A stretch of DNA of 63,994 nucleotides, filler included, from Basidiobolus ranarum (Eukaryota), in the NCBI GenBank assembly GCA_040143965.1. It is 11 parts of 11 records of this genome, joined end to end, with 100 filler letters (N's around TTAATTAATTAA, not from the genome) between each part and the next. Parts side by side here need not be neighbours in the genome. Positions count along the whole stretch, not along the records: positions 1 to 5,765 come from JASJQH010001505.1; 10 more parts are not named here. The stretch is one strand, 5' to 3'. The notes below the pieces were generated by a model that saw only the letters and a program-made list of their open reading frames with translations, was not told the DNA's origin and searched no databases. The translations under genes and the position numbers were made by a program. Below are positions 1 to 31,810 of this stretch, one piece after another. Each line of letters begins with the position of its first letter. Positions within the stretch are counted from its first letter, which is position 1.

Positions 1-1886
1 AGTTGCTGAAAATGTCATCTTACAGACGACTGCTGTCGCTACCGCCACCATGCCTTTAGCTGGAGGTATTTTTGTCTTGAATTTAGTTTGTTTACTATCT
101 GACACCTAATGTTTAAACTAAAAAAGGCTTTGTGGGGATAATTCCTGCTCTAACATTATTGAACAAAGAAGAGGGAGGTCCTATTGTTATGAGTAGTTCA
201 CAGTTGATACTTTGGGGTTTAGGCATTGCATTTTTTGGAGTTTTTTTCGCCATTCCTCTTCGAAAGCAAACAGTATGTTACCGTATATTTCAAGCGATTT
301 AGCAATCCGGCTGAACTCTAATAATTCTTCGATGACTTATTTAGATTATCAAAGAAAAACTACGTTTTCCGTCAGGCACAGCGACAGCGCAGATGATCAG
401 TTTGCTCCATAAAAAATCCATATCGGCGGAAGAAGCAAGTTGGCAAACACAGTGGAGATGTTTGCTATATTCTTTTTTACTCTCCGGCTTCTATACTATC
501 TCAAGTTACTTTCTTCCAGTATTGTCGCAACTGCCGATCTTCGGATACTCAGCAAAAAATTGGAATTGGTTTTTGACACCTTGTATGTATTTGTGCGTGC
601 TTAATAGGACGACATCTATTTGAAAGTTGGTACTAAAGCTTGACCCTTATCGTAGCATTATCATATATGGGACAAGGAATCATCATGGGCTTACCTACGA
701 CACTAGCTATGTTAGTTGGTGCTATTGTAGGATGGGGTATTTTATCACCAATTAGCTACTACAACGGTTGGGCACCAGGTCCCATTGACGATGCCCAAAC
801 AGGGGCGCGTGGATGGATTCTCTGGATCTCTTTAGCAGTTATGATATCGGAAAGTTTGGTGAGTCTTGGAGTGATCATCGCCAAAGAGATTCAGCAGCGC
901 TGGAGAGCCTCCAGTGTATATGGCGAAGAAGCTATAAATTGTGAAGATGAGGAACCTTGCCCGCCGGAGCAACTAGTACCCTCTTGGGTGACATACAGTG
1001 GATTAAGCTTCTCTTCGATATTGTGTGTGATTGCAGTCACGATTTTGTTTGATATTCCAATATTTGCCACACTACTGTCAGTAGTGCTAGCATGTCTTTT
1101 AAGTGTTCTAGCTGTCAGAGCTTTGGGAGAAACGGATTTGAATCCTGTTAGTGGAATCGGCAAAGTCTCACAAGTGATATTCGCTGGTGTGATCCCTGGG
1201 GGAATTGCAGCAAACATCGTTGCAGGCGGCATTGCTGAGGCTGGAGCGCAACAAGCTGGTGATATGATGCAAGGTTTGCAGAGTGAAGGGTATAAACACA
1301 TTTACCATTTTGACTAACAGATTTCGCTTGTTCTTGCTATTTCCTACATTTATAAACAGACATGAAGACTGGTCACCTGCTGCATGCCTCACCTCGTGCC
1401 CAGTTCTACGGACAGTTAATAGGATCTTTTGTATCGGTGTTTGTCGCGGTTGGTGCTTATCAGTTGTATACCAGCGTATATACTATTCCCGGCCCAGTGT
1501 TCCAAGCGCCGACAGCCATGGTTTGGTTAGATATGTCCAGACTAGTCAATGGACATCCACTTCCACCTAACGTTCTTCCCTTCATCATCATCTTCGGAGT
1601 TCTCTTTTCACTTCCACCGATACTGGAAGCCAGGTACCCTCATTCCCAGCTATGGCGTTTCCTTCCTTCTGGCATTGCATTCGCTATTGGTATATACAAT
1701 CCGCCCAACTACACGCTTCCAAGAGTTATCGGAGCCCTAGTGACCGACATAGCTTGCCGCAATAATGCAAACCCCCGACTAATACAAGCCCTTTCGATTG
1801 TGGTAGCATCTGGGTTTGTTCTTGGCGAAGGGACATTTGCCATCTTGACACTTGGTTTAAAAGCTGGTCAAGTTGGATCTTCATGA
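1..1886 (+). CDS. OPT-superfamily oligopeptide/metal-chelate transporter (YSL/YGL114W-like), 5' truncated, about 5 exons
   Basis: Spliced reading gives ENVILQTTAVATATMP, FFAIPLRKQ, KLRFPSGTATA, RALGETDLNPVSGIGK and AGDMMQDMKTGHL, all OPT-family motifs. GT..AG introns at about 66-127, 273-344, 583-655 and 1274-1359; TGA at 1884-1886. Confidence 0.92.
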
Positions 1887-2197
1887 TAACGAGAGGCTTG
1901 TATTTACACTAGAGTTTCACTCTCACCAATACTGGTATTCTGTAAGATATCTAATCCTTGAACAGGTTTGTTATTCTATAAACTTATGATTAAAACTGCT
2001 GCATGAAACATGAACAATACCCCACTTTTTGAAATTTCGTTATAAATTCGTTTAAATCTTCCCAGAAACCATTCAAGTGTGACATTATATTATATGGTAC
2101 CTTATCAGAAAACTGTGGCTTACCAAGACATGTGGCTTGAAGGACCTGATCTTGGTGAAAAAAGCCGATATTTCACTCCGAGATATCCCCAAACATA

Positions 2198-2228
2198 CCC
2201 GTAACCTGTAGCCCGTAACCCGTAACCC
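2198..2228. repeat. Short tandem 7-mer array (CCCGTAA, about 4.4 units)
   Basis: Read directly as CCCGTAA CCTGTAG CCCGTAA CCCGTAA CCC. Confidence 0.8.
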
Positions 2229-2374
2229 ATACGTTTATAAATCATCCCAGTTTTCATGTAATTGTTTAAAGCCACGTTTTTCTCATCAATGATGCCTTCT
2301 CACGTGATGTAACGACTAATAACTAAATACGTACTTGTAAGATAGATTAGATTTTGACTTGGCTAACAATTGAT

Positions 2375-2910
2375 CTCTCGCATCACGAGTCAGCCCTAAG
2401 TGTGGTCAAGACCTACCTCTCTCACCTCTCCGCCCAAACTCCTCAAGATGAAATAGGCTGATAGAGGCTGGGGTAGGGCAACGGTCGGAATTGATGATGT
2501 TCTGAAACCAATCACTATAAGTGTACGATCTTTGTGCGAGAAAGGTGAGAATGGTGGTGAGAAAGGCAGAGAGAGACATGCGCACCTGTTCATCCAGTAA
2601 GATTCCCCAAAGTGGATTTCAGTTCGGACTGATTAAGATGCTGGATCTTCCACGGTTAATCTCCAATGGTATTGTATTACCTACAGATACACCGATACAC
2701 AGATTCCCATACTGGGAGCTAACTGGAACCGTACTAGAATCATACCCTCTATTTGATGACTCCTCCTTCTGCGGGCCAACCGGACCAGACTATTTGCCTC
2801 TCGGATGATTAGTGAAAGTAGAAAATTCATGGACTTTGCCCGATAAAAAGGATATTTCTGAAATACGATAATTGATCAGAAATACGATGATTAAGGGTTA
2901 TTTTCATCGG
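2375..2910 (-). ncRNA. Candidate structured non-coding RNA, family unassigned
   Basis: GC-richer intergenic block with many helices; the mismatches become G-U pairs only on the minus strand (e.g. 14-bp helix 2413-2426/2556-2569). No convincing ORF. Confidence 0.35.
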
Positions 2911-3492
2911 AACATGTTCGCATACCTTAAGGAACTATATATACATGCTATTCCATCCTATATACATACATACATGGCATTCCGTTTCTAACATATTGCC
3001 GATAAGGTTTCTGACGCATACTAGCTACCTTGCATCCTATCTTCTTGACTGCTGTTGCAATGGCTGTTGAGAAATTGTACGGAAGCTCACTCCAATCGGT
3101 GATCAACTTTTCTGTACATCATTTTCCGGTTTCGGAGTTAGAACGCTATGAACAATCACTTGAGGGGACTACCCTAGATCCACACAAGATGTAGCTTTCA
3201 AATTGATTGCAATTGTAAACGGATTATAGCAATATGACACTACTTCATGAAAACGAGGGTATAGAGTGGGTATAGGGTATGGACCATCTATTTGTCTAAT
3301 TTCTGAGATACTATAAACGTTAGCATTCCGCCTCACCCGACAAATTGTCAGCCCAGCTCAAATCCCGAAATTTTCTCTTTCTCTGTCTTGAACTGGTCAG
3401 CTTGCCTTGACGTTTGTTATTTCTTCAACAAACATCCTCTTTCAATACCTCATCTCACGGAATCCTTCGTTACCTTTATAAATTTCTGGAGA

Positions 3493-4619
3493 ATGTTCAA
3501 ACAGCCTTTTGTTACTTCCAAAATCTCTTTGAGCTCTAATGGCAAGTGTTTTCGAAAACAAAGTCGAGTTTTTACTGTTGTTCTAACCTCTTTTTTACTA
3601 ATAGATACGCAACCGTTGAACGTCGACGTTGATGTTGGTAAAGCCATTCATGGTAAGTCTTTATTCTTGAAATAAACTGAAGTATCCACAAGCTGCTCTT
3701 ATTAATACAGTTGTATATAGCTATGGATCAGCAGTATGGCACTCAATTTGAAACATGGATTCGTAATGAAAGCAATACCGACTGTGTAGTATTTTATCTT
3801 CGTAAATTTATCATAGAGTTCGAAGATAACAATCCTAGTGCTATCGCACGGGCAGTGAAATGGATAGTTCAAGGATGGAGCGTTCAGAAACTAGTCGAGC
3901 TTCTAATTAAGTTATTCTATCATTGGGGGGTTGGCCATCCAAAATTCGTCTCCTTGGTATCAGAGCTTAGTCAAGATTGGCGTATGCCACTGGTGGTTGA
4001 CTTGGTAGCTACTCTAGTTGTTGGGGAAAACTCTTGCAACACCGCAAGCTTTATTCAGCTTTTTACTCAATCATGGGAACCTTTCATGGTTATTCAGCTG
4101 TGCAGAAATATAGCTACTAGACTGCGTTGGAATGATCGGTATTGCCATCAATTTTTGCTTCGTTATGCCACATTGACCTATCCAGAAGGGCCTACGCAAC
4201 GAGTCGTACTAAACCAGATTCACAACCAGTTTGAAACACGAAATAACATGTTACATCACTATTACAACCCGTCAAAGATGGACTCTGGCTCGCTTTTCTT
4301 GTCACCAGTAGACTTTACCATGACAGTACTAGAAGTGATGGTTCGTGACTTGAAAATGTATCAAAGCAGTCACGACAAATACTCTACACTTTCTCGCACC
4401 AAAACGTATTCCCGGAGTAAACGAATAAGCACCAACAAGTGCACAAAGTCAATAGCACAGGAAAAGGAACTGACCAACTCTCAATTTGAAGAAACCCCAC
4501 AAGCTATCTCCACTCCACCTACCCCGCGTACAGCAAGCCTTCTAGAAAAATTGAGCGGCCCGTCATCGAGCAATCCCAACGACGGAATAATTTTGGGACT
4601 TCCCATGGTAGATGAATAG
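3493..4619 (+). CDS. Hypothetical protein (helical N-terminal domain, Ser/Thr-rich tail), 3 exons
   Basis: A 302-codon ORF joins in frame to upstream exons 3493-3541 and 3605-3652 through a putative GC-AG intron (3542-3604) and a GT-AG intron (3653-3720). TATA-like ctataaa at about 3311. Confidence 0.7.
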
Positions 4620-5688
4620 AAATCTAAACAAAAGATATAGAAAACGATCACCACACGTACATTCACACCTTTAGATATGACTCGCTTAAAATATTGAATT
4701 GTAGCTATTTTTATCAGGCACTTCTCCTCTTCCTTTACTTCACTTTACACCCTTCACACACACCACCAATATCTTTAAAACGACAGATACACTTGATGTA
4801 TTTAGATTATTAAGTTAAAATCCCCACTCCTTAGAAAGCTTGAGGCGTCTACTTGAAATCACATTCTCTGTATAACCAGTGATTTATCAGTTGATTCCCC
4901 TCCTTCCTTCTCTTGTAACATAAACACCTCACTCCTTCTACACACCTTACAAACCACTGATTAGAATCAATCCGATCAGGTTAGTGTGATATGAGCATAA
5001 ATCTAACTTGATTTGATCATGACCAAGCCATTGACCAAAAAAAGTCTAAATTAACAAACACATTCCCTCTGGCGGTAATATTGAATGTACGGTGCTTGCC
5101 ATGCGATAAGAGAGCAAGTAATGTAATCTTTTAAGTTTACATGTTAAATATTGCATTTGATGGGCCGCAAAAGGCAATAAGTCAATCCTACCAACCAATC
5201 TACCTACAATGTTCTAGAATTCTTCGCAAGTCCAATCAAAATCTCCCTAACAAGAATATACAAATTCGATCAAATTTCTAATGGGAAACCATTCTATTGG
5301 TCTAGCCTCGATCGACCCGGGTGAGTTTTCTCACTACTACTTCCAAATGCTGCGACGGGATGATTAATCGAAAATCAGCATGAAATGGGACTTCCAAAGA
5401 TGTTTCTCGAATATTTTTTGCAGCATTTTTACAAAATATCATTAATATGAAGAAGAATTGTTGATGAAAAGTTTCAAAATTAGGTGATCAAAGAAAGGTA
5501 AACAGAAGCATTACTATATATCTCTCAAGATAGATAATAAATCTGGAATTCCCAAAGATCAGGGGCCTACCTGCGCCCCAGCGCAATTTTTTTTTCACCA
5601 GTCCCATTCCTTTAGTTTAAAAGAGTGATGGTACGTTCTACTCAATCCTCGTCCATTTGACAGCTAATCTATCAAAGTAACCATCAAT

Positions 5689-5765
5689 ATGTCTGCCACT
5701 GATAACAAGCAACATCTTTCCATCGTCATTTGCGGTCACGTCGATTCCGGTAAGTCTACCACTAC
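5689..5765 (+). CDS. EFL: Elongation factor-like GTPase (EFL), 5' fragment cut by contig end
   Basis: MSATDNKQHLSIVICGHVDSGKSTT; HLSIVICGHVD is the EFL-type G1 region, whereas canonical EF-1alpha reads HINxVVIGHVD. Probable 5'UTR intron 5631-5663. Confidence 0.8.
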
Positions 5766-5865
5766 NNNNNNNNNNNNNNNNNNNNNNNNNNNNNNNNNNN
5801 NNNNNNNNNTTAATTAATTAANNNNNNNNNNNNNNNNNNNNNNNNNNNNNNNNNNNNNNNNNNNN
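5766..5865. other. Artificial contig spacer
   Basis: N44-TTAATTAATTAA-N44. Confidence 0.99.
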
Positions 5866-7030
5866 GAGCAAAGTTCAACAGAAAAACCACTAAGACCTTG
5901 AACTTCCCAAATGCCTACTTTGTCAATTATTGAACACCCCTCAATAGACAATTTGGAGAGAATCATTACAACAAGGGAATTTCTGACAGAGCACCATAAT
6001 GATTTGTTTGCAATCATAAGTAAAAACTACAAAGTTGCTATACAGGCCATGACTAGCAATACTGCAATTACTTAAGTGTTGTGAAGCTTCTAGTCAACAG
6101 TTAGAGAGTCACTCCACTATTGTACAAGACCTTCAGAATGATGTACTTGAGCTACAGCAATATGCTACTCCTTCTATTGGGAAAATATGGGCTGTTTGGA
6201 GGAACTTTAGAAAAGTGGAGTTGTGAATAGCTTTTGTGAGATGATTATTCATTGTCCCAAAATAAAGCTTTTATACATTTTGGTTAAAATACAAAAAACT
6301 AACACTGGGATTGTTTTCAGAACATCTGTGGGAGTAAAATGAGCTATCTTTGGGGCAATTTGGATGAGTTTGAAATTTCCAATATGGAATTACTAATTCT
6401 CACATTAATCATATATATATATAAAATATGTTCCAATTTGCAGTTAAGTGATATTTGACTAAGTAATGTTAACTAACTTATATGTGATATATGAAATGGT
6501 TAGGTGTATAAAGATAGAGATAACAAATATGATAAAGACAATAAACTTCAACACCCTCCATCCATTCCCATACAGGATTTCAATCTATGCCACACCATAA
6601 ATAGGAATGTCACCATTACATTCTAGCAGAGTAGAGTATGTGTTGGACCATTAAGCCAACACAATAACTCAAAATTGCTTAGGCACATGAAAGGGTTAAT
6701 TTCATGGGAAAACTAGCAAACCAGAAGATTCTGAAAGTTAATGCTGCTGTCACTTGCTCTGATGATCAATGGTTTAACATTTTGGAAACTGTGTGGAATT
6801 GTACCCAAAATCACCTCAATTTGAGCTAATTGTGGAAAAACCAAAGACCAGGCATTATTCAGAAGGCTTGTGACTCATTGGATGTGGCTTATCCTGGGTT
6901 TTTGCAAGCAAATGGCAATTGGGCCTGTATAGGCCTATTATTGAAACATCTCAAAAAATATATGCAATTATAGACATGGAAAAGAAAGAAAAGCTGCTAA
7001 AGTAGTCCTCAAGGAGCAAGAAGTTATTAA
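5866..7030 (+). mobile_element. Degenerate partial copy of the CACTA-like element ORF2, interrupted by a solo LTR
   Basis: Collinear similarity to about 10170-10955 on both sides of the 6175-6553 insertion; many stops. Confidence 0.8.
6175..6553. mobile_element. Solo LTR (379 bp) with 5-bp target-site duplication
   Basis: Termini TATTG...TTCAACA; flanks CCTTC (6170-6174) and CCCTC (6554-6558); absent at the homologous site near 10485. Confidence 0.75.
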
Positions 7031-7212
7031 TGTTGAAAGTTTGGTGACTTGTGGTACAAGCAGTAATTCCCAAAGGGAAAATATGGAGTATGGTGACTGC
7101 ATCTGAACACAAAGTCTAAGGCCAATCAGTTGCTTGTGTAGCTGAAATGCCAAAGTACCATACATTGACAGACTAGGTTGAGGTTCCCTAGCAATATAGG
7201 CATAGCATACAA

Positions 7213-7285
7213 GGACTGGTAGCTCAGTGGTTAGAGCACCTTGCTAGAGTGAAGAAGGTCCCAGGTTCAAATCCTGGCCAGACCA
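7213..7285 (+). pseudogene. tRNA-like sequence or tRNA pseudogene (nominal anticodon AGA, short variable loop)
   Basis: 73-nt cloverleaf: acceptor GGACTGG/CCAGACC (1 mismatch), D stem GCTC/GAGC, T arm CCAGG-TTCAAAT-CCTGG; anticodon stem CCTTG/GAAGA has 2 mismatches. Confidence 0.7.
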
Positions 7286-7439
7286 ATATTTCTCCCTAAA
7301 TAATTTCAGTAAGTAAATGTGGCATTGCTTGCATGGATTACCCCATGGCTAAAGCAATAATACTGCCTATCTTGATCCATCTCATCAAGAAGTCTGTATT
7401 GCAGCTTTCCTAGGAATACTGTCAGATTGTTACACAAAC

Positions 7440-9620
7440 AAATTAGTCCAAGTTGTGGAGTTACCTACTCTGTGTCCTTGGATTGGCTTTTGTTGCTGAT
7501 ATTGTGCTCAAACAATGCAAAAACCCATGAGCACATTGAAAAGAGCTCTTTGTTGGAAGATTCATATACTCTGTTGTCTCCTTAACCCATTGCATTATAT
7601 CCATCACCAATTTTGCTGAAAAATTTTCAATCAGATTAGCATATGGTAATACCAACAATTTCATATAGAGCATCATTTCACTGCAGGTGTGCCCCATTGG
7701 GAACTCCCAGAATATATAGCAGGGGCCTATAATCTCTGAGCATTATGGAAGATGAAGCAAGGAATGTATTTAATATCAGCATATATTCAGTCTATCCTCA
7801 TTAAACCTGTAATAAAGCTTTACAAATCCAATTACAAAATCTTTGCAAAGTCACTGTATCTGCCTGAGATCTGCCAATGTGAGTTGATGCCAGAAGAATA
7901 TATCAACAGTATCCACAAACAACTCCCAATGTTGCCAATACTCATTGGGCAGAAATGTTTTCAAGATTCCACTAGAATATATACAAATCCAATACTTCCA
8001 GTCTTTGCATTTAAATAAATGCCTAGATGAGTAGATATTGATGGGAGTCCTGGTAAGATATGTTGGTATCTTGACATTTTCAAGCATTTTCCCAGTTGAT
8101 TCAAACTTCAATCCCATTTTGAATGGCTCATCCATATTGAATTTTACACTATACAGCTGAGTTAGTAGTATTGGAATGTTGTTGAATAGTAAGTGCATAG
8201 TGCCTAATGGGAAGCTCTGGCTCCAGCCAATCCCCTTTAGCAATATAATCTTAGGCTTATGGCAAATATCAAGTTTGATGTTAGACTGACTATTTGGTGA
8301 ATTGATATTAGTGATCATGTTGAAATCTGACTGAGCTCTTGATGGTAAATTCATGGAGTTTAGTTTTGTACTTGGATAGTAGTAATCCATATTCCTGATA
8401 GAGTAAACTCCATTGATTTGATAAAATTTACTGCAAGATAGTGCATTGTGCCCACAACAACCTCCAAGTTTACTGATGGCAGGAGTGTCACCAATACATA
8501 CAATGATATTAGCTTTAATAAAATATTCACCCATCTGAACCCCATTAGATAACCGTTCAAATTCCGCAATCAAAGGCTCCAAGAAGCTAACTATAAGCAC
8601 TAGTGAAATAGGTCCAGATATGATGGATAGTATCAAAATATTATAACTCTTATACCATTTAGAATGTGGAAGATTTAACTTAATTAACATTATTGGCCAC
8701 AAGCATTTCTGACAGTACATTTGTTTAGTAAGAAACTCTCCAGAGCAAATGCAAATGCATAATCATATATGTTCTCAAAGAAACCTTGAATTTTCATATT
8801 CTGGTAGTGATATACATCAAGTATATTGTTAATACCATCAGCTTTATGGTGAGAACTTTGTTATTAGATCACTGATCTATATATTGGGTGATATCATCAA
8901 AACATTAAGAGAAGGAATCAATGGTATGTAAGCCAAATATGAATGATATTTACCTGATTCAGCAATTGCCAATTGTGTGCAAACAGTACATGACTTCAGG
9001 TTTTCAGATCACTGGTGACAGCCCAGTAACCATTTGGACATGAAGGTAGTTTAATTACTGAAGGATTATGAGTCATACAATTGACAAGTGTTTTCCACTT
9101 GTACCAGGTCTGTGGTATGCAATAGTTGCCAATCAACTGTCTTAAAAGTGTAAGAAAACTTATTATCAACTGGTTGGTAAGTTTGAATTGAACTCTCCAC
9201 TCCTTAATAATCAAAGCTGCTTTGTCTCCTGCAAGTGTGATGAGTGCACTATTGCTTGCCAATAACAAAGAGTCAGTAACAAAACCATCATCATCTTGTT
9301 CAACTTCTGATACACCACCATCAGTACTGGAATAACCAAGGTCAACATCTAGCAGTAAGTCCTCAAAGTTGTCTGGACCTACTGATCCAACCAGAGTTGC
9401 ATTTCTAACTACATCATTCTGGTCATATAACTGAGGTAACTCCACAATATCTTGACTTTTGGCAGTGTTACCAAAACTTTGAGGCTAAGTACAGACAGTG
9501 GACTCAGTGGGCATAACTAAAGTCAAGCTTGTGCACTTGTGACAGTTGATATTCACCAGGCTTTGTGCAGCAGGTGACTTTGTACAGTGACCATTCTTGT
9601 GTTTACTTTTTCATGAAGCC
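7440..9620 (-). mobile_element. Decayed CACTA/EnSpm-type (Transposase_21/Tnp2-like) transposase
   Basis: ORF pieces WPIMLIKLNLP..YK..NILILSIISGP..SFLEPLIAEF..L..GV and GDTPAISKLGG..GHNA, broken by stops and frameshifts. Confidence 0.8.
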
Positions 9621-9825
9621 TCCAGCTTTCTTAGCACAAGAATTTTTGACAATAATAGCAGGTCTTCTTTAAACACTTGTGTTGCAGCATGAGAAGGATA
9701 TGGTAGAAAAATGAACACCTCGTATGTAAGAGTGATATTTTAGGTATAGCCCATCACTAGTATCAGCTGATTCTGAGATGATGTCACAAATGAGTCATCA
9801 GGGGATTTACAAGATATTTCCAGTA

Positions 9826-11625
9826 ATGGATGGCAATTTTGGTTTTTCAAAAGCTATTTCTGAGCAATTTCATTACACCAAGTTTACCATCTGAAAATTT
9901 CAATGTCATTCAAAAAGCATGCAAAATCAAAATCAAACTGGCTTCCAAGCCAAAGCCTGCCAGCAAAAAAGGAAAAAAAGCAGCAAGAACAGAGTACTTA
10001 ATTGATGAGCAGTCTAGTGATCCACTATCCACTTTGGAAGGCATTAACATGCCAGAAACTAACTCAATTAATGATGAAGCATTAATCAATTAACCAGATG
10101 TGTTCCTTACCAGCTATAATGCAAGTGAAGAGATTTTAATCCCCCAAGTATGTAGTAAATCAATAGTTGAGCAAAGTTCACCCAAAACACTATCATGACT
10201 ATCAACTTCCAAAATGGCTGCTCTGCCCATTATTGAACACTCCTCCATAGCAAATTAGGATAGAATTGTTACTACAAGGAAATTGCAGGCAGAACACCTT
10301 TATGATTTGTAGGTAATCATTAGTAAAAACTACAAAGTTGCAATACAGGCCATGACAAGCAATAATGCCGCAATATTGCAATTAATACAGTGTTTGGAAG
10401 CAACTTGTCAACAGTTAGAGAGTCAATCAACAATGATACACAACCTTCAGAATGCTGTAGTTGAGCTACAGCAACATGCTGCTCTCTCCATCCATTCTCA
10501 TATTAGATTTCAGTCAATCTCACACCATGCACATGAACATCACCATTACAATCTAGCTGAGCAGAATATGTGTTGGACCATTAAGCCTACACAACAACCC
10601 AAAATTGCTTAGGCACATGAAAGTAGAAATCTCATAGGAAACCAGCAAACCAAAAGACTCTGAATGCCAGAGCTGCCATTGCTTGCTCTGATGATGAGTG
10701 GTTTAACATTTTGGAAATTGTGTGGAATCTTGCCCAAAATCACCTAGATTTGAGCCAATTGTGGAAAAACAAAAACCAGGCCTTACTCTGAGGTTCTTGA
10801 CTTATTTCTTGTGGCTTATCCTGGGTTTTTGCAAGCAAATGGTAAATGGGCTAGTATAGGCCTATTGATGAAACTTCTCAGAAATGTATGCAGTTATTGA
10901 CTTGGAAAAGAAAGAAAGAAGGTAAAGCAGTACTCAAGGAGCAAAAAGTTAGTAAACTCAAGGGAAAAGCAAAGGAGCCAGTGAGTTTAGGCTCTACTGT
11001 CCAACTTAGCAAATTCTTCACACCATTACAAAGATCTGCAATTCCAGAGTCAGATATACTGGCAAAAAAGCTTAATTTCACCAGGGAACCAGGTACACCA
11101 GTTGGAAGAGTGCTAACTTAAGAAGTTTATCCAACACCTGGTACCACTCAACAAGCCAAAACACCAGCAAATAAAACTCATGGCTCTCCAACCTCAATTG
11201 GTACTTTTCAAAGTGTTGAAATTAGTCCCAAAGGTAAAGGCAAGCAAAAAGCCACACAAACACCGCAAAGCACCCTTAGTAGCATCACACTACAAGGATG
11301 TACAAAAATAGTAAAAGTACTTAAGGAGTATTTTCAAAGTTATGAAGAGAAAAACACAGTGCAAGTATGCAGAAAGTGGCTTCAGTAGAAGAACATTCAA
11401 CTTGACATTCAGTCTGGTGTTGACCATGCAGATATCTGGCAAGAACTCAATACAGAGTGGCACAATATTGCAGGGTATCCACCAGATAGCTGGAAGAATG
11501 TTGATTCAGCAACATTAATACAATGGTGGGCTTTGATGAAGATATTGACACAAACTTGTGTTGGGTATGAGCTAAACCTTGGGTATGAAGAACTCTATAA
11601 AAATATTCAGGAGAATATATCAAAG
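9826..11625 (+). mobile_element. Decayed second ORF (unknown function) of the CACTA-like element
   Basis: Fragmented ORFs 9830-11625 are homologous to 59991-61545 (minus) and lie head-to-head with the transposase in both copies. Confidence 0.7.
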
Positions 11626-31532: not shown

Positions 31533-31738
31533 AAGAAAACATCTGTTTTAAATTGTGAGCTGTGGTTTAGGAACTGTTATGGTGAAATAAATTGCGCCAA
31601 GTACAATAGCTTTCATCAAGGCAATGAATTGTAAAATTCCACAGCTGAACTTATGTAACAACATTTGTACACTTCATAATTCGATTTTAATTTCTCGACA
31701 TTGACTGACATAAACTTGATCAATATTTGTGTAAAATG

Positions 31739-31810
31739 TGCCTACTGCCGGGATTGAACTGGCGACCTTCAGTTTACGAGACTGACGCGCTACCACTGCG
31801 CTAAGCAGGC
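31739..31810 (-). tRNA. tRNA-Thr (anticodon CGU), possibly decaying
   Basis: GCCTGCTTAGCGCAGTGGTAGCGCGTCAGTCTCGTAAACTGAAGGTCGCCAGTTCAATCCCGGCAGTAGGCA folds as a cloverleaf with one A-C mismatch in the T stem. Confidence 0.85.

Follow-up and report, generated by a model that had tools for sequence, protein, structure and literature searches.

Two selectively conserved islands in an intergenic spacer of Basidiobolus ranarum, retained in an old duplicate of the locus

The locus and its setting

The DNA analysed here (the window) is a stretch of 63,994 nucleotides from Basidiobolus ranarum, assembly GCA_040143965.1, in which separate contigs are strung together with N spacers. The subject is a block of 536 nt, at positions 2375-2910, on contig G000:C1505 (window 1-5765). 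Here, the block is the spacer between a gene for an OPT-family transporter and a gene at 3493, and the annotated surroundings are as follows:

1-1886, plus strand: upstream gene, an OPT-family oligopeptide transporter (PF03169, E 1e-35 and 5e-34), whose start lies off the contig
2196-2228, plus strand: a listed feature
3493-4619, plus strand: downstream gene (P0003), encoding a 331-aa protein, its first intron (3542-3604) GC-AG

The 331-aa product, named a hypothetical protein of Basidiobolus ranarum in a source record, matches no Pfam family above the cut-off. Among 1250 candidate proteins of 164-524 aa, its relatives were a 70%-identical B. ranarum paralogue and one protein of B. meristosporus; in that one search, therefore, relatives were found only in Basidiobolus. 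Within the genome, the family gives five strong and six weak matches (L017-L026). The intron at 3542-3604 is GT-AG in the paralogue.

The assembly holds 65 Mb in 13,754 contigs, and a qPCR estimate reported for Basidiobolus ranarum puts its genome at 350 Mb (PMC3281927). This makes absence from the assembly weak evidence. Repeats, moreover, are possibly under-represented in it.

Elsewhere in the window, a tRNA-Ser(AGA) is called at 7213-7285 (plus strand), which looks short for a serine tRNA and has a poorly paired anticodon arm, and a tRNA-Thr(CGT) at 31738-31810 (minus strand). At 5690-5765 lies the 5' start of a translation-factor GTPase gene, truncated by the contig end. We take this fragment to resemble EFL; a Pfam scan of its 25 amino acids gave no match. 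Basidiobolus has been reported with both EFL and EF-1alpha (PMC3281927).

Folding of the spacer

The initial annotation read the block as a single structured RNA of the minus strand, packed with helices, with telomerase RNA and RNase MRP RNA as the families suggested. The helices that it named are present where it placed them. The arms of the long-range pair 2382-2389/2800-2809 are 8 nt and 10 nt long, so that this pair needs a 2-nt bulge. Also present are the words that had prompted the assignments: UAACCCUUAA (2900-2891), the CR-V-like stretch (2405-2386), and the tract TATATATA (minus 2943-2936).

The density of helices, of course, is a separate matter, and it is not above chance. The minimum free energy (MFE) of the block has a z of 0.16 on the minus strand, where 58 of 100 shuffles fold equally well, and of 0.46 on the plus strand, where 66 of 100 do. 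Thus, on neither strand does the block fold better than its shuffles, a comparison that the initial annotation had itself proposed. Stems of at least 8, 10, 12 and 14 bp (G-U allowed) number 46, 9, 2 and 1, counts that are reached by 33, 16, 19 and 13.5% of 200 shuffles, respectively; one 14-bp stem was matched in 27 of the 200, and two stems of at least 12 bp in 38. No 120-nt window across the block has a folding z below -2.1.

The 14-bp stem is this one:

2413-2569, minus strand: 14-bp helix 2569-2556/2426-2413, joining CT and AG low-complexity tracts, with 2 G-U pairs

Its AG-rich arm carries short direct repeats, and a 200-nt bin that covers part of it (2290-2489) shows no conservation in the paralogous locus described below (z -0.5). 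The hairpin 2853-2884 overlaps a 19-nt tandem duplication (2857-2892); low-complexity tracts and this duplication are thus the source of the two longest helices. Selection on a minus-strand RNA had been argued from positions that are G-U on that strand. Such pairs do exist, but they account for only 3 of the 51 pairs in the seven ungapped listed helices, and one of the three is terminal. The TATATA tract that had been offered as an upstream box also exists, but it is a common word (the DNA of this genome has 1.62 copies of TATAWA per kb on each strand), it lies in a duplicated AT-rich unit, and it is not kept in the alignment with the paralogue.

The block as a whole is most likely ordinary spacer DNA, not one folded RNA. 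What survives of the minus-strand proposal is smaller. Its folding is ordinary and both of its suggested families fail, as set out below, but about 160 of the 536 bases are selectively kept in the paralogue, and the folding of this kept part leans weakly toward the minus strand. Because of this retention and this lean, and because the block is not dispersed as a MITE in this assembly, a minus-strand RNA with a smaller core, assigned to no family, keeps a place among the explanations.

Conserved islands in an old duplicate of the locus

The two genes that flank the block both have paralogues, and the copies are separated by 1.02-1.30 substitutions per four-fold site. Upstream of the 3493-gene paralogue, contig C7509 (L032) carries a stretch that corresponds colinearly to the block and was overlooked by blastn across the genome. 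The local alignment of the block to L032 scores 156.5, against 102 +/- 9 for 200 shuffles, whose maximum was 134.5. The conserved elements are these:

2586-2694: conserved island 1; counterpart L032:5224-5322; 67 of 97 aligned bases identical
2478-2532: conserved island 2; counterpart at about L032:5405-5450; identity at 47 of 69 aligned positions (alignment of 2470-2550)
2270-2281, no strand assigned: block of 12 bp around a CACGT core, unchanged in the paralogue
3063-3424, no strand assigned: conserved non-coding block, putative promoter and 5' UTR, with TATAAA kept near 3311 on the plus strand

Read on the minus strand, island 1 keeps the blocks CTGTAGG, CATCTTAATCAGT and AATCTTAC; island 2, which is colinear with island 1 in both copies, keeps the words GATCRTACRCTTA, TGGTTTCAG and CGTT, in that order. 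A blastn comparison of 2628-2692 with the paralogue gives an E of 2.4e-4, and the 200-nt bin 2490-2689 reaches a z of 12.5 against shuffles. Weaker signals appear in bins 2090-2289 (z 3.3) and 2890-3089 (z 4.0), and none in bins 1890-2089, 2290-2489 and 2690-2889. The pattern is one of blocks of 7-13 bp separated by variable spacers, with the words TTAATCA and ATCTTA (motifs read by eye) repeated. The CACGT block and telomere-like words flank the islands, and a second CACGTG lies at 2301. The lengths of the island indels are not multiples of three, and those of 4 nt and 7 nt lie outside the proposed helices.

Introns and most spacer DNA cannot be aligned between the duplicates. The OPT introns, as read from the alignment, retain little except splice signals. 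Five of six bins 3' of the 3493 gene have a z below 2, and all four bins compared with the 3' flank of the OPT paralogue fall below 1; the islands are linked to the 3493-gene paralogue on C7509, and not to that flank. The two islands and the 12-bp CACGT block have been selectively conserved, under purifying selection, since the old duplication. Because both stretches have survived in so old a duplicate, the islands are probably functional in some way.

Closer to the gene, the block 3063-3424 aligns to L032:4277-4644 at 72.6% over 379 columns (E 1e-41), and bins 3090-3489 reach z values of 20-42. Two copies of this block are found in the assembly, and the identity of its roughly 360 bp between the duplicates is well above that of other spacer DNA. 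It is probably the promoter and 5' UTR of the 3493 gene. The segment 3290-3430 also folds better on the minus strand (z -3.4; consensus z -2.2), and 3063-3424 may encode a divergent RNA. The paralogous locus has features of its own that lack a clear counterpart in the window: a stable hairpin at L032:5653-5700 (z about -3.2), and a 28-nt imperfect inverted repeat (4929-4956/5612-5639) that encloses about 700 bases.

Dispersal as a MITE, which the initial annotation had named as telling against a structured RNA, is not seen in this assembly, where the single blastn match of the block is to itself; no terminal inverted repeat is found at its ends. The search for a third island copy was likewise empty in assembly patterns, distant family members, metagenomes and viral contigs. 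An exact two-block island pattern matches the assembly twice, at the two copies already known. A 12-mer matched 15 times and its reversed control 6 times; in the 13 other matches similarity did not extend beyond the 12-mer. Island sequence was not found upstream of three more distant members of the 3493 family, and viral contigs gave 0 matches. Metagenomes gave four, all on the opposite strand within one bacterial open frame, which presumably encodes an ABC-transporter ATPase; these were considered as third copies and taken as chance.

A proposed role of the islands as distal regulatory DNA

The conservation of the islands is not coding. In a six-frame comparison with the paralogue, the top scores fall only in the 3063-3424 block, mostly with stops, and the islands give no coding signal; when a 95-aa frame at 2521-2808 was compared with proteins of 52-167 aa, no homologue appeared.

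The best explanation, which we hold at slightly less than an even chance, is that the islands and the CACGT block form a distal regulatory region of the gene at 3493. Here, the islands would be clusters of transcription-factor sites, 0.8-1.2 kb upstream of the gene, and would act together with the proximal conserved block 3063-3424. Both the binding of proteins by the islands as DNA, and the 3493 gene as the target, are inferred. Non-coding sequence that is selectively kept ahead of a gene is a mark of cis-regulatory DNA, and this is what is found. There is no excess of folding in either copy and no Rfam match of any weight. A second pair within the 3493-gene family also retains an upstream island, of 77 nt. 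Further, because the same locus keeps a 360-bp block at 72.6%, long constrained non-coding DNA appears to be a trait of the 3493 gene.

As to the factors that might bind, none was identified in the islands, and no known site, from motifs read by eye. CACGTG, which lies near the islands, is a word of bHLH boxes. Myb-type binders of telomere repeats (Tay1/Teb1/Tbf1) are described as also using TTAGGG sites in promoters (PMC12449055).

Several observations sit less easily with regulatory DNA. An island of about 100 nt at 69% identity seems long for a cluster of binding sites; the consensus fold of island 1 leans to the minus strand (z -2.0, p 0.04); and island helices picked by eye keep 24 of their 25 pairs in both copies. 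The choice between DNA and RNA rests, of course, on two sequences. As regulatory DNA, the islands would be a minor annotation, of use chiefly in marking constraint near a gene family that is specific to Basidiobolus. The duplicate locus is itself a ready two-copy test of them.

The islands as a possible RNA core

Those last observations belong to the strongest rival, to which we give an appreciable but clearly lesser chance. In it, the islands would be the conserved core of a non-coding RNA of the minus strand, of no assigned class and about 500-700 nt long, transcribed divergently from the 3493 gene, kept in both duplicates, and predicted to be a protein-binding scaffold. Such an RNA would contain a bulged hairpin pairing 2733-2722 with 2671-2651, whose loop would pair with CUUAC at 2601-2597 to make a pseudoknot, together with small hairpins. 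One element of it comes from the initial list of helices:

2651-2733, minus strand: helix 2733-2727/2657-2651, with a stacked extension; the only one of the listed helices for which the paralogue may have a counterpart

Six pairs of this helix are kept in both copies, three of them by compensatory change, with the 5' arm of the paralogue placed by eye. In an arm test, the helix had 11 shared paired columns, a number reached by 3 of 60 shuffles, this being the best of eight tests. The 24 retained pairs come from five short island helices, also picked by eye, and include one compensatory change. At four further positions in these helices only one partner has changed, and each time a G-U pair preserves the pairing on the minus strand. 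For island 1, consensus folds have p values of 0.04-0.09 on the minus strand, against 0.13-0.52 on the plus strand (uncorrected).

Other results weigh against this RNA. The helices were chosen by eye from two sequences only. When helices of 7 bp are sought without bias, a shuffled pair yields about 26 that pass as shared and covarying; the minus strand shows 41, a number reached by 2 of 40 shuffles, and a single AT-rich tract outside the block supplies 14 of these. Duplex energies are ordinary, with a p of about 0.5 for helix 2733-2727/2657-2651. Other alignments did not repeat the minus-strand lean of island 1: with MAFFT, the core came out in favour of the plus strand (z -3.0, against -1.5 for minus). 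Consensus folding of both islands together gives p values of 0.19-0.47 on the minus strand, with a z of -0.8 at p 0.19. The paralogue folds worse than all of 20 shuffles. Neither copy has an Sm site, and no promoter, terminator or T-run common to the two was seen.

Nor do known families help. Rfam scans of window 1-10000, of 2300-3000 and of L032:4200-6148 returned only a tRNA and sub-threshold noise. Motifs of U1, U2, U3, U5, U11, U6atac, SRP, snR30 and ribozymes, sought by eye, include none that is kept in both copies. Because no rDNA was found in the assembly, eukaryotic rDNA contigs of another collection served as proxies in a search for the rRNA guides of a box C/D or H/ACA snoRNA; with the proxies for SSU, for 5.8S and for the first 2.2 kb of LSU as targets, no guide is common to both copies. 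A 13-nt antisense match to 18S occurs in the paralogue only. In the search for nuclear rDNA in the assembly itself, an 18S motif had matched nowhere, and the only 5.8S match, on C7030, stayed below threshold. A scan for bacterial promoters and terminators, unsuited to a fungus, found nothing, and by title no paper on topic turned up for Basidiobolus telomerase or snoRNA, or for telomerase RNA of early-diverging fungi, Zoopagomycota or Mucoromycota. If the islands were an RNA core, they would represent a structured RNA of no assigned class from an early-diverging fungus, for which hardly any description of non-coding RNAs exists.

Possible splicing, or absence of function

A less probable proposal, to be regarded as doubtful, makes island 1 a spliced intron of a plus-strand transcript, either non-coding or a 5' leader, that would start near the CACGT block and might extend into the gene at 3493, with a regulatory element in the interior of the intron:

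2597-2686, plus strand: possible 90-nt intron, GTAAGATT ... CCTACAG, both ends kept; 79 nt in the paralogue

Here, GTAAGATT, CCTACAG and a branch-point-like TTAAT are kept in both copies, with the ends 90 and 79 nt apart, a size similar to that of introns in the flanking genes. On the minus strand, the CUGUAGG helix is broken by a single base, which is found immediately outside the GT. But the interior of the intron is more conserved than the would-be exons, unlike the introns of the OPT gene, and such intron patterns occur 0.52 times per kb per strand. The frame that would cross the junction (2457-2600) has no ATG.

It is a little less credible again that the islands have no function, and are slow-decaying remnants of the duplication or a tract of gene conversion. 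Only two copies can be compared, a third sequence not having been found, which leaves room for the idea; but at about one substitution per neutral site, colinear exact blocks of 13 bp, 12 bp and several of 7-9 bp are unlikely to persist, and the flanking bins stand at background level.

The proposed kinship with RNase P and RNase MRP

We consider it very improbable that the block encodes a diverged third RNA of the RNase P/MRP type, with P2 (2927-2919/2582-2574), a P3 domain, CR-I, an expanded S-domain, a P19-like helix and CR-V. The fuller form of this idea, of the same slight credibility, is an RNA of about 550 nt with a P2-P3-P4-P19 scaffold, its catalytic-core adenosines lost, in which island 1 would be a new conserved S-domain; it would serve as a scaffold for Pop1 alongside the canonical P and MRP, and be retained in two copies since the old duplication. 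The relevant features are two:

2839-2911, minus strand: hairpin domain of two helices, of 11 bp and 10 bp, with an internal loop between them, and then CAAAGUCC; MFE -18.2 kcal/mol
2385-2405, minus strand: CR-V-like stretch, without the AA adenosine pair of the CR-V in the genome's own MRP

The order of MRP elements can be drawn by eye in the block. The domain 2839-2911 resembles P3 plus CR-I of RNase MRP; it is the local MFE structure and ends at a CR-I-like stretch that shares 12 of 16 bases with the genome's MRP. Its upper helix overlaps the 19-nt duplication 2857-2892, window 2800-2919 has a folding z of -1.9, and the paralogue counterpart fails to form the domain. The CR-V-like word lies 436 nt past the CR-I-like word, and the two can pair in a P4-like duplex with five contiguous pairs, at -10.6 kcal/mol compared with -12.4 for MRP. 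This motif pair stands at the top of the background. A loose CR-V pattern matches only this place and MRP in 207,574 bases, but that pattern was modelled on this place; the strict descriptor matches the canonical MRP gene only.

The initial suggestion of RNase MRP does not hold. The canonical genes for MRP and nuclear RNase P sit elsewhere in the genome, on contig C7082 (121.6 bits) and contig C10438 (114.4 bits), respectively. With the genome's own MRP motifs as templates, CR-I plus CR-V scores 26 of 38 in the block, a score that two unrelated places in 308,450 strand-bases also reach; the best score in the paralogue is 23, at positions that do not match. The CR-V-like stretch itself agrees with the genome's own MRP at 14 of 22 after one indel penalty. 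No alignment of the block to the genome's own MRP or P stands out, with z from -1.7 to 1.3 in 16 tests. The features of MRP used for comparison were CR-I followed by a 3-bp P5, the P8 GARAR pentaloop and a six-nucleotide CR-IV that has conserved A, G and A and precedes the 3' strand of P2, as they are described in PMC13184271. No GARAR-capped stem occurs on minus 2945-2201. By eye, the complement of 2389-2375 that would make P1 is missing upstream of the P2-like arm (in the MFE structure, that end pairs with 2810-2800), and the AGGUGC ahead of the P2-like strand lacks the final conserved A of CR-IV. The P2-like arm has six partners with at least 8 of 9 pairs in each copy. RF00030 has no covariance-model match on 2300-3000 at E up to 10 across Rfam, and the block is not among four genome matches to RF00030 (24 of 423 candidates scored). 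An RF00009 match and, by eye, the T-loops of CR-II/III are likewise absent from the block. Apparent covariation between the P2-like helix 2927-2919/2582-2574 and L032:5041-5048/5344-5351, along with a P4-like pair in the paralogue (by eye), was set aside because such pairs are common in shuffles. The resemblance of the block to MRP is chance.

Two observations on the canonical genes may be recorded. Within 450 bases 3' of the MRP gene (L002:1501-1761) are two SNORD36-type box C/D snoRNA matches on the same strand (1912-1990 and 2130-2208). After the 3' end of the RNase P gene (L006:1120-1417), about 30 bases of the gene's 3' terminus recur as a near-copy.

The proposed telomerase RNA

Least credible of all is the reading of the block as a telomerase RNA, or a variant paralogue of one, with UAACCCUUAA as its template:

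2891-2900, minus strand: template-like 10-mer UAACCCUUAA, absent from the paralogue

This 10-mer occurs once in 148,077 bases and differs by a single base from UAACCCUAA, the Ustilago template given in PMC9564094. Malassezia telomerase RNAs are put at about 500 nt in PMC12506658, which reports TTAAGTG-type variants as well. By pairing, however, UAACCCUUAA would write TTAAGGG, the repeat assumed in the initial annotation, and (TTAAGGG)3 has 0 matches in the assembly. The arrays at contig ends are TTAGGG, and a telomere repeat other than TTAAGGG is what the initial annotation had itself named as refuting the telomerase reading. Here, (TTAGGG)4 has 36 matches on 8 contigs; three contigs end in pure arrays of 18, 12 and 4 units, G-strand outward, three more carry arrays near an end with degenerate tails, and on the other two the arrays are internal. 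These ends fix the template that any true telomerase RNA in this genome must carry. The fit of UAACCCUUAA to TTAGGG is only 7 nt, a length that occurs 65 times in 148,077 bases. No template word of at least 7 nt lies in the paralogue counterpart, with one 7-mer past its 3' end (L032:5752).

The structural features used were the U-A.U triple-helix pseudoknot and CR4/5 with P6.1, as described in PMC12506658 and PMC9564094. By eye, neither a U-rich/A-rich triple-helix pseudoknot nor P6.1 was found in the right order: the pseudoknot that can be drawn has loops neither U-rich nor A-rich, and a 4-bp hairpin in island 2 stands in the wrong order for P6.1 of CR4/5.

As an observation apart, the TTAGGG arrays at the ends of G000:C10482, C13172 and C7746 (L105, L106 and L108) directly adjoin unrelated flanks, and no subtelomeric sequence shared among these contigs was seen by eye.

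Comparison with known systems

Compared with fungal telomerase RNA, as described for Ustilago (PMC9564094) and Malassezia (PMC12506658), the block is alike in its possible size of about 500 nt, in a template-like word near the proposed 5' end, and in a pseudoknot that can be drawn downstream of that word. It differs in that the word mismatches the TTAGGG ends of the genome, and in having no Sm site and no recognisable triple helix or P6.1.

Compared with RNase MRP (RF00030) and RNase P (RF00009), the likeness lies in the ordered CR-I-like and CR-V-like words, the P3-like hairpin and the P4-like duplex. The block differs in having no P1, no GARAR loop, no intact CR-IV or CR-V, and no covariance-model score, and its motifs are not retained in the paralogue.

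The third comparison is with the cis-regulatory sequences of ancient duplicates. From these, the islands differ in the length of island 1, at about 100 nt, and in its weak, strand-biased folding lean. They are alike in their colinear short blocks, in the variable spacers between them, in carrying neither coding nor folding signal, and in the CACGT and telomere-like words nearby.
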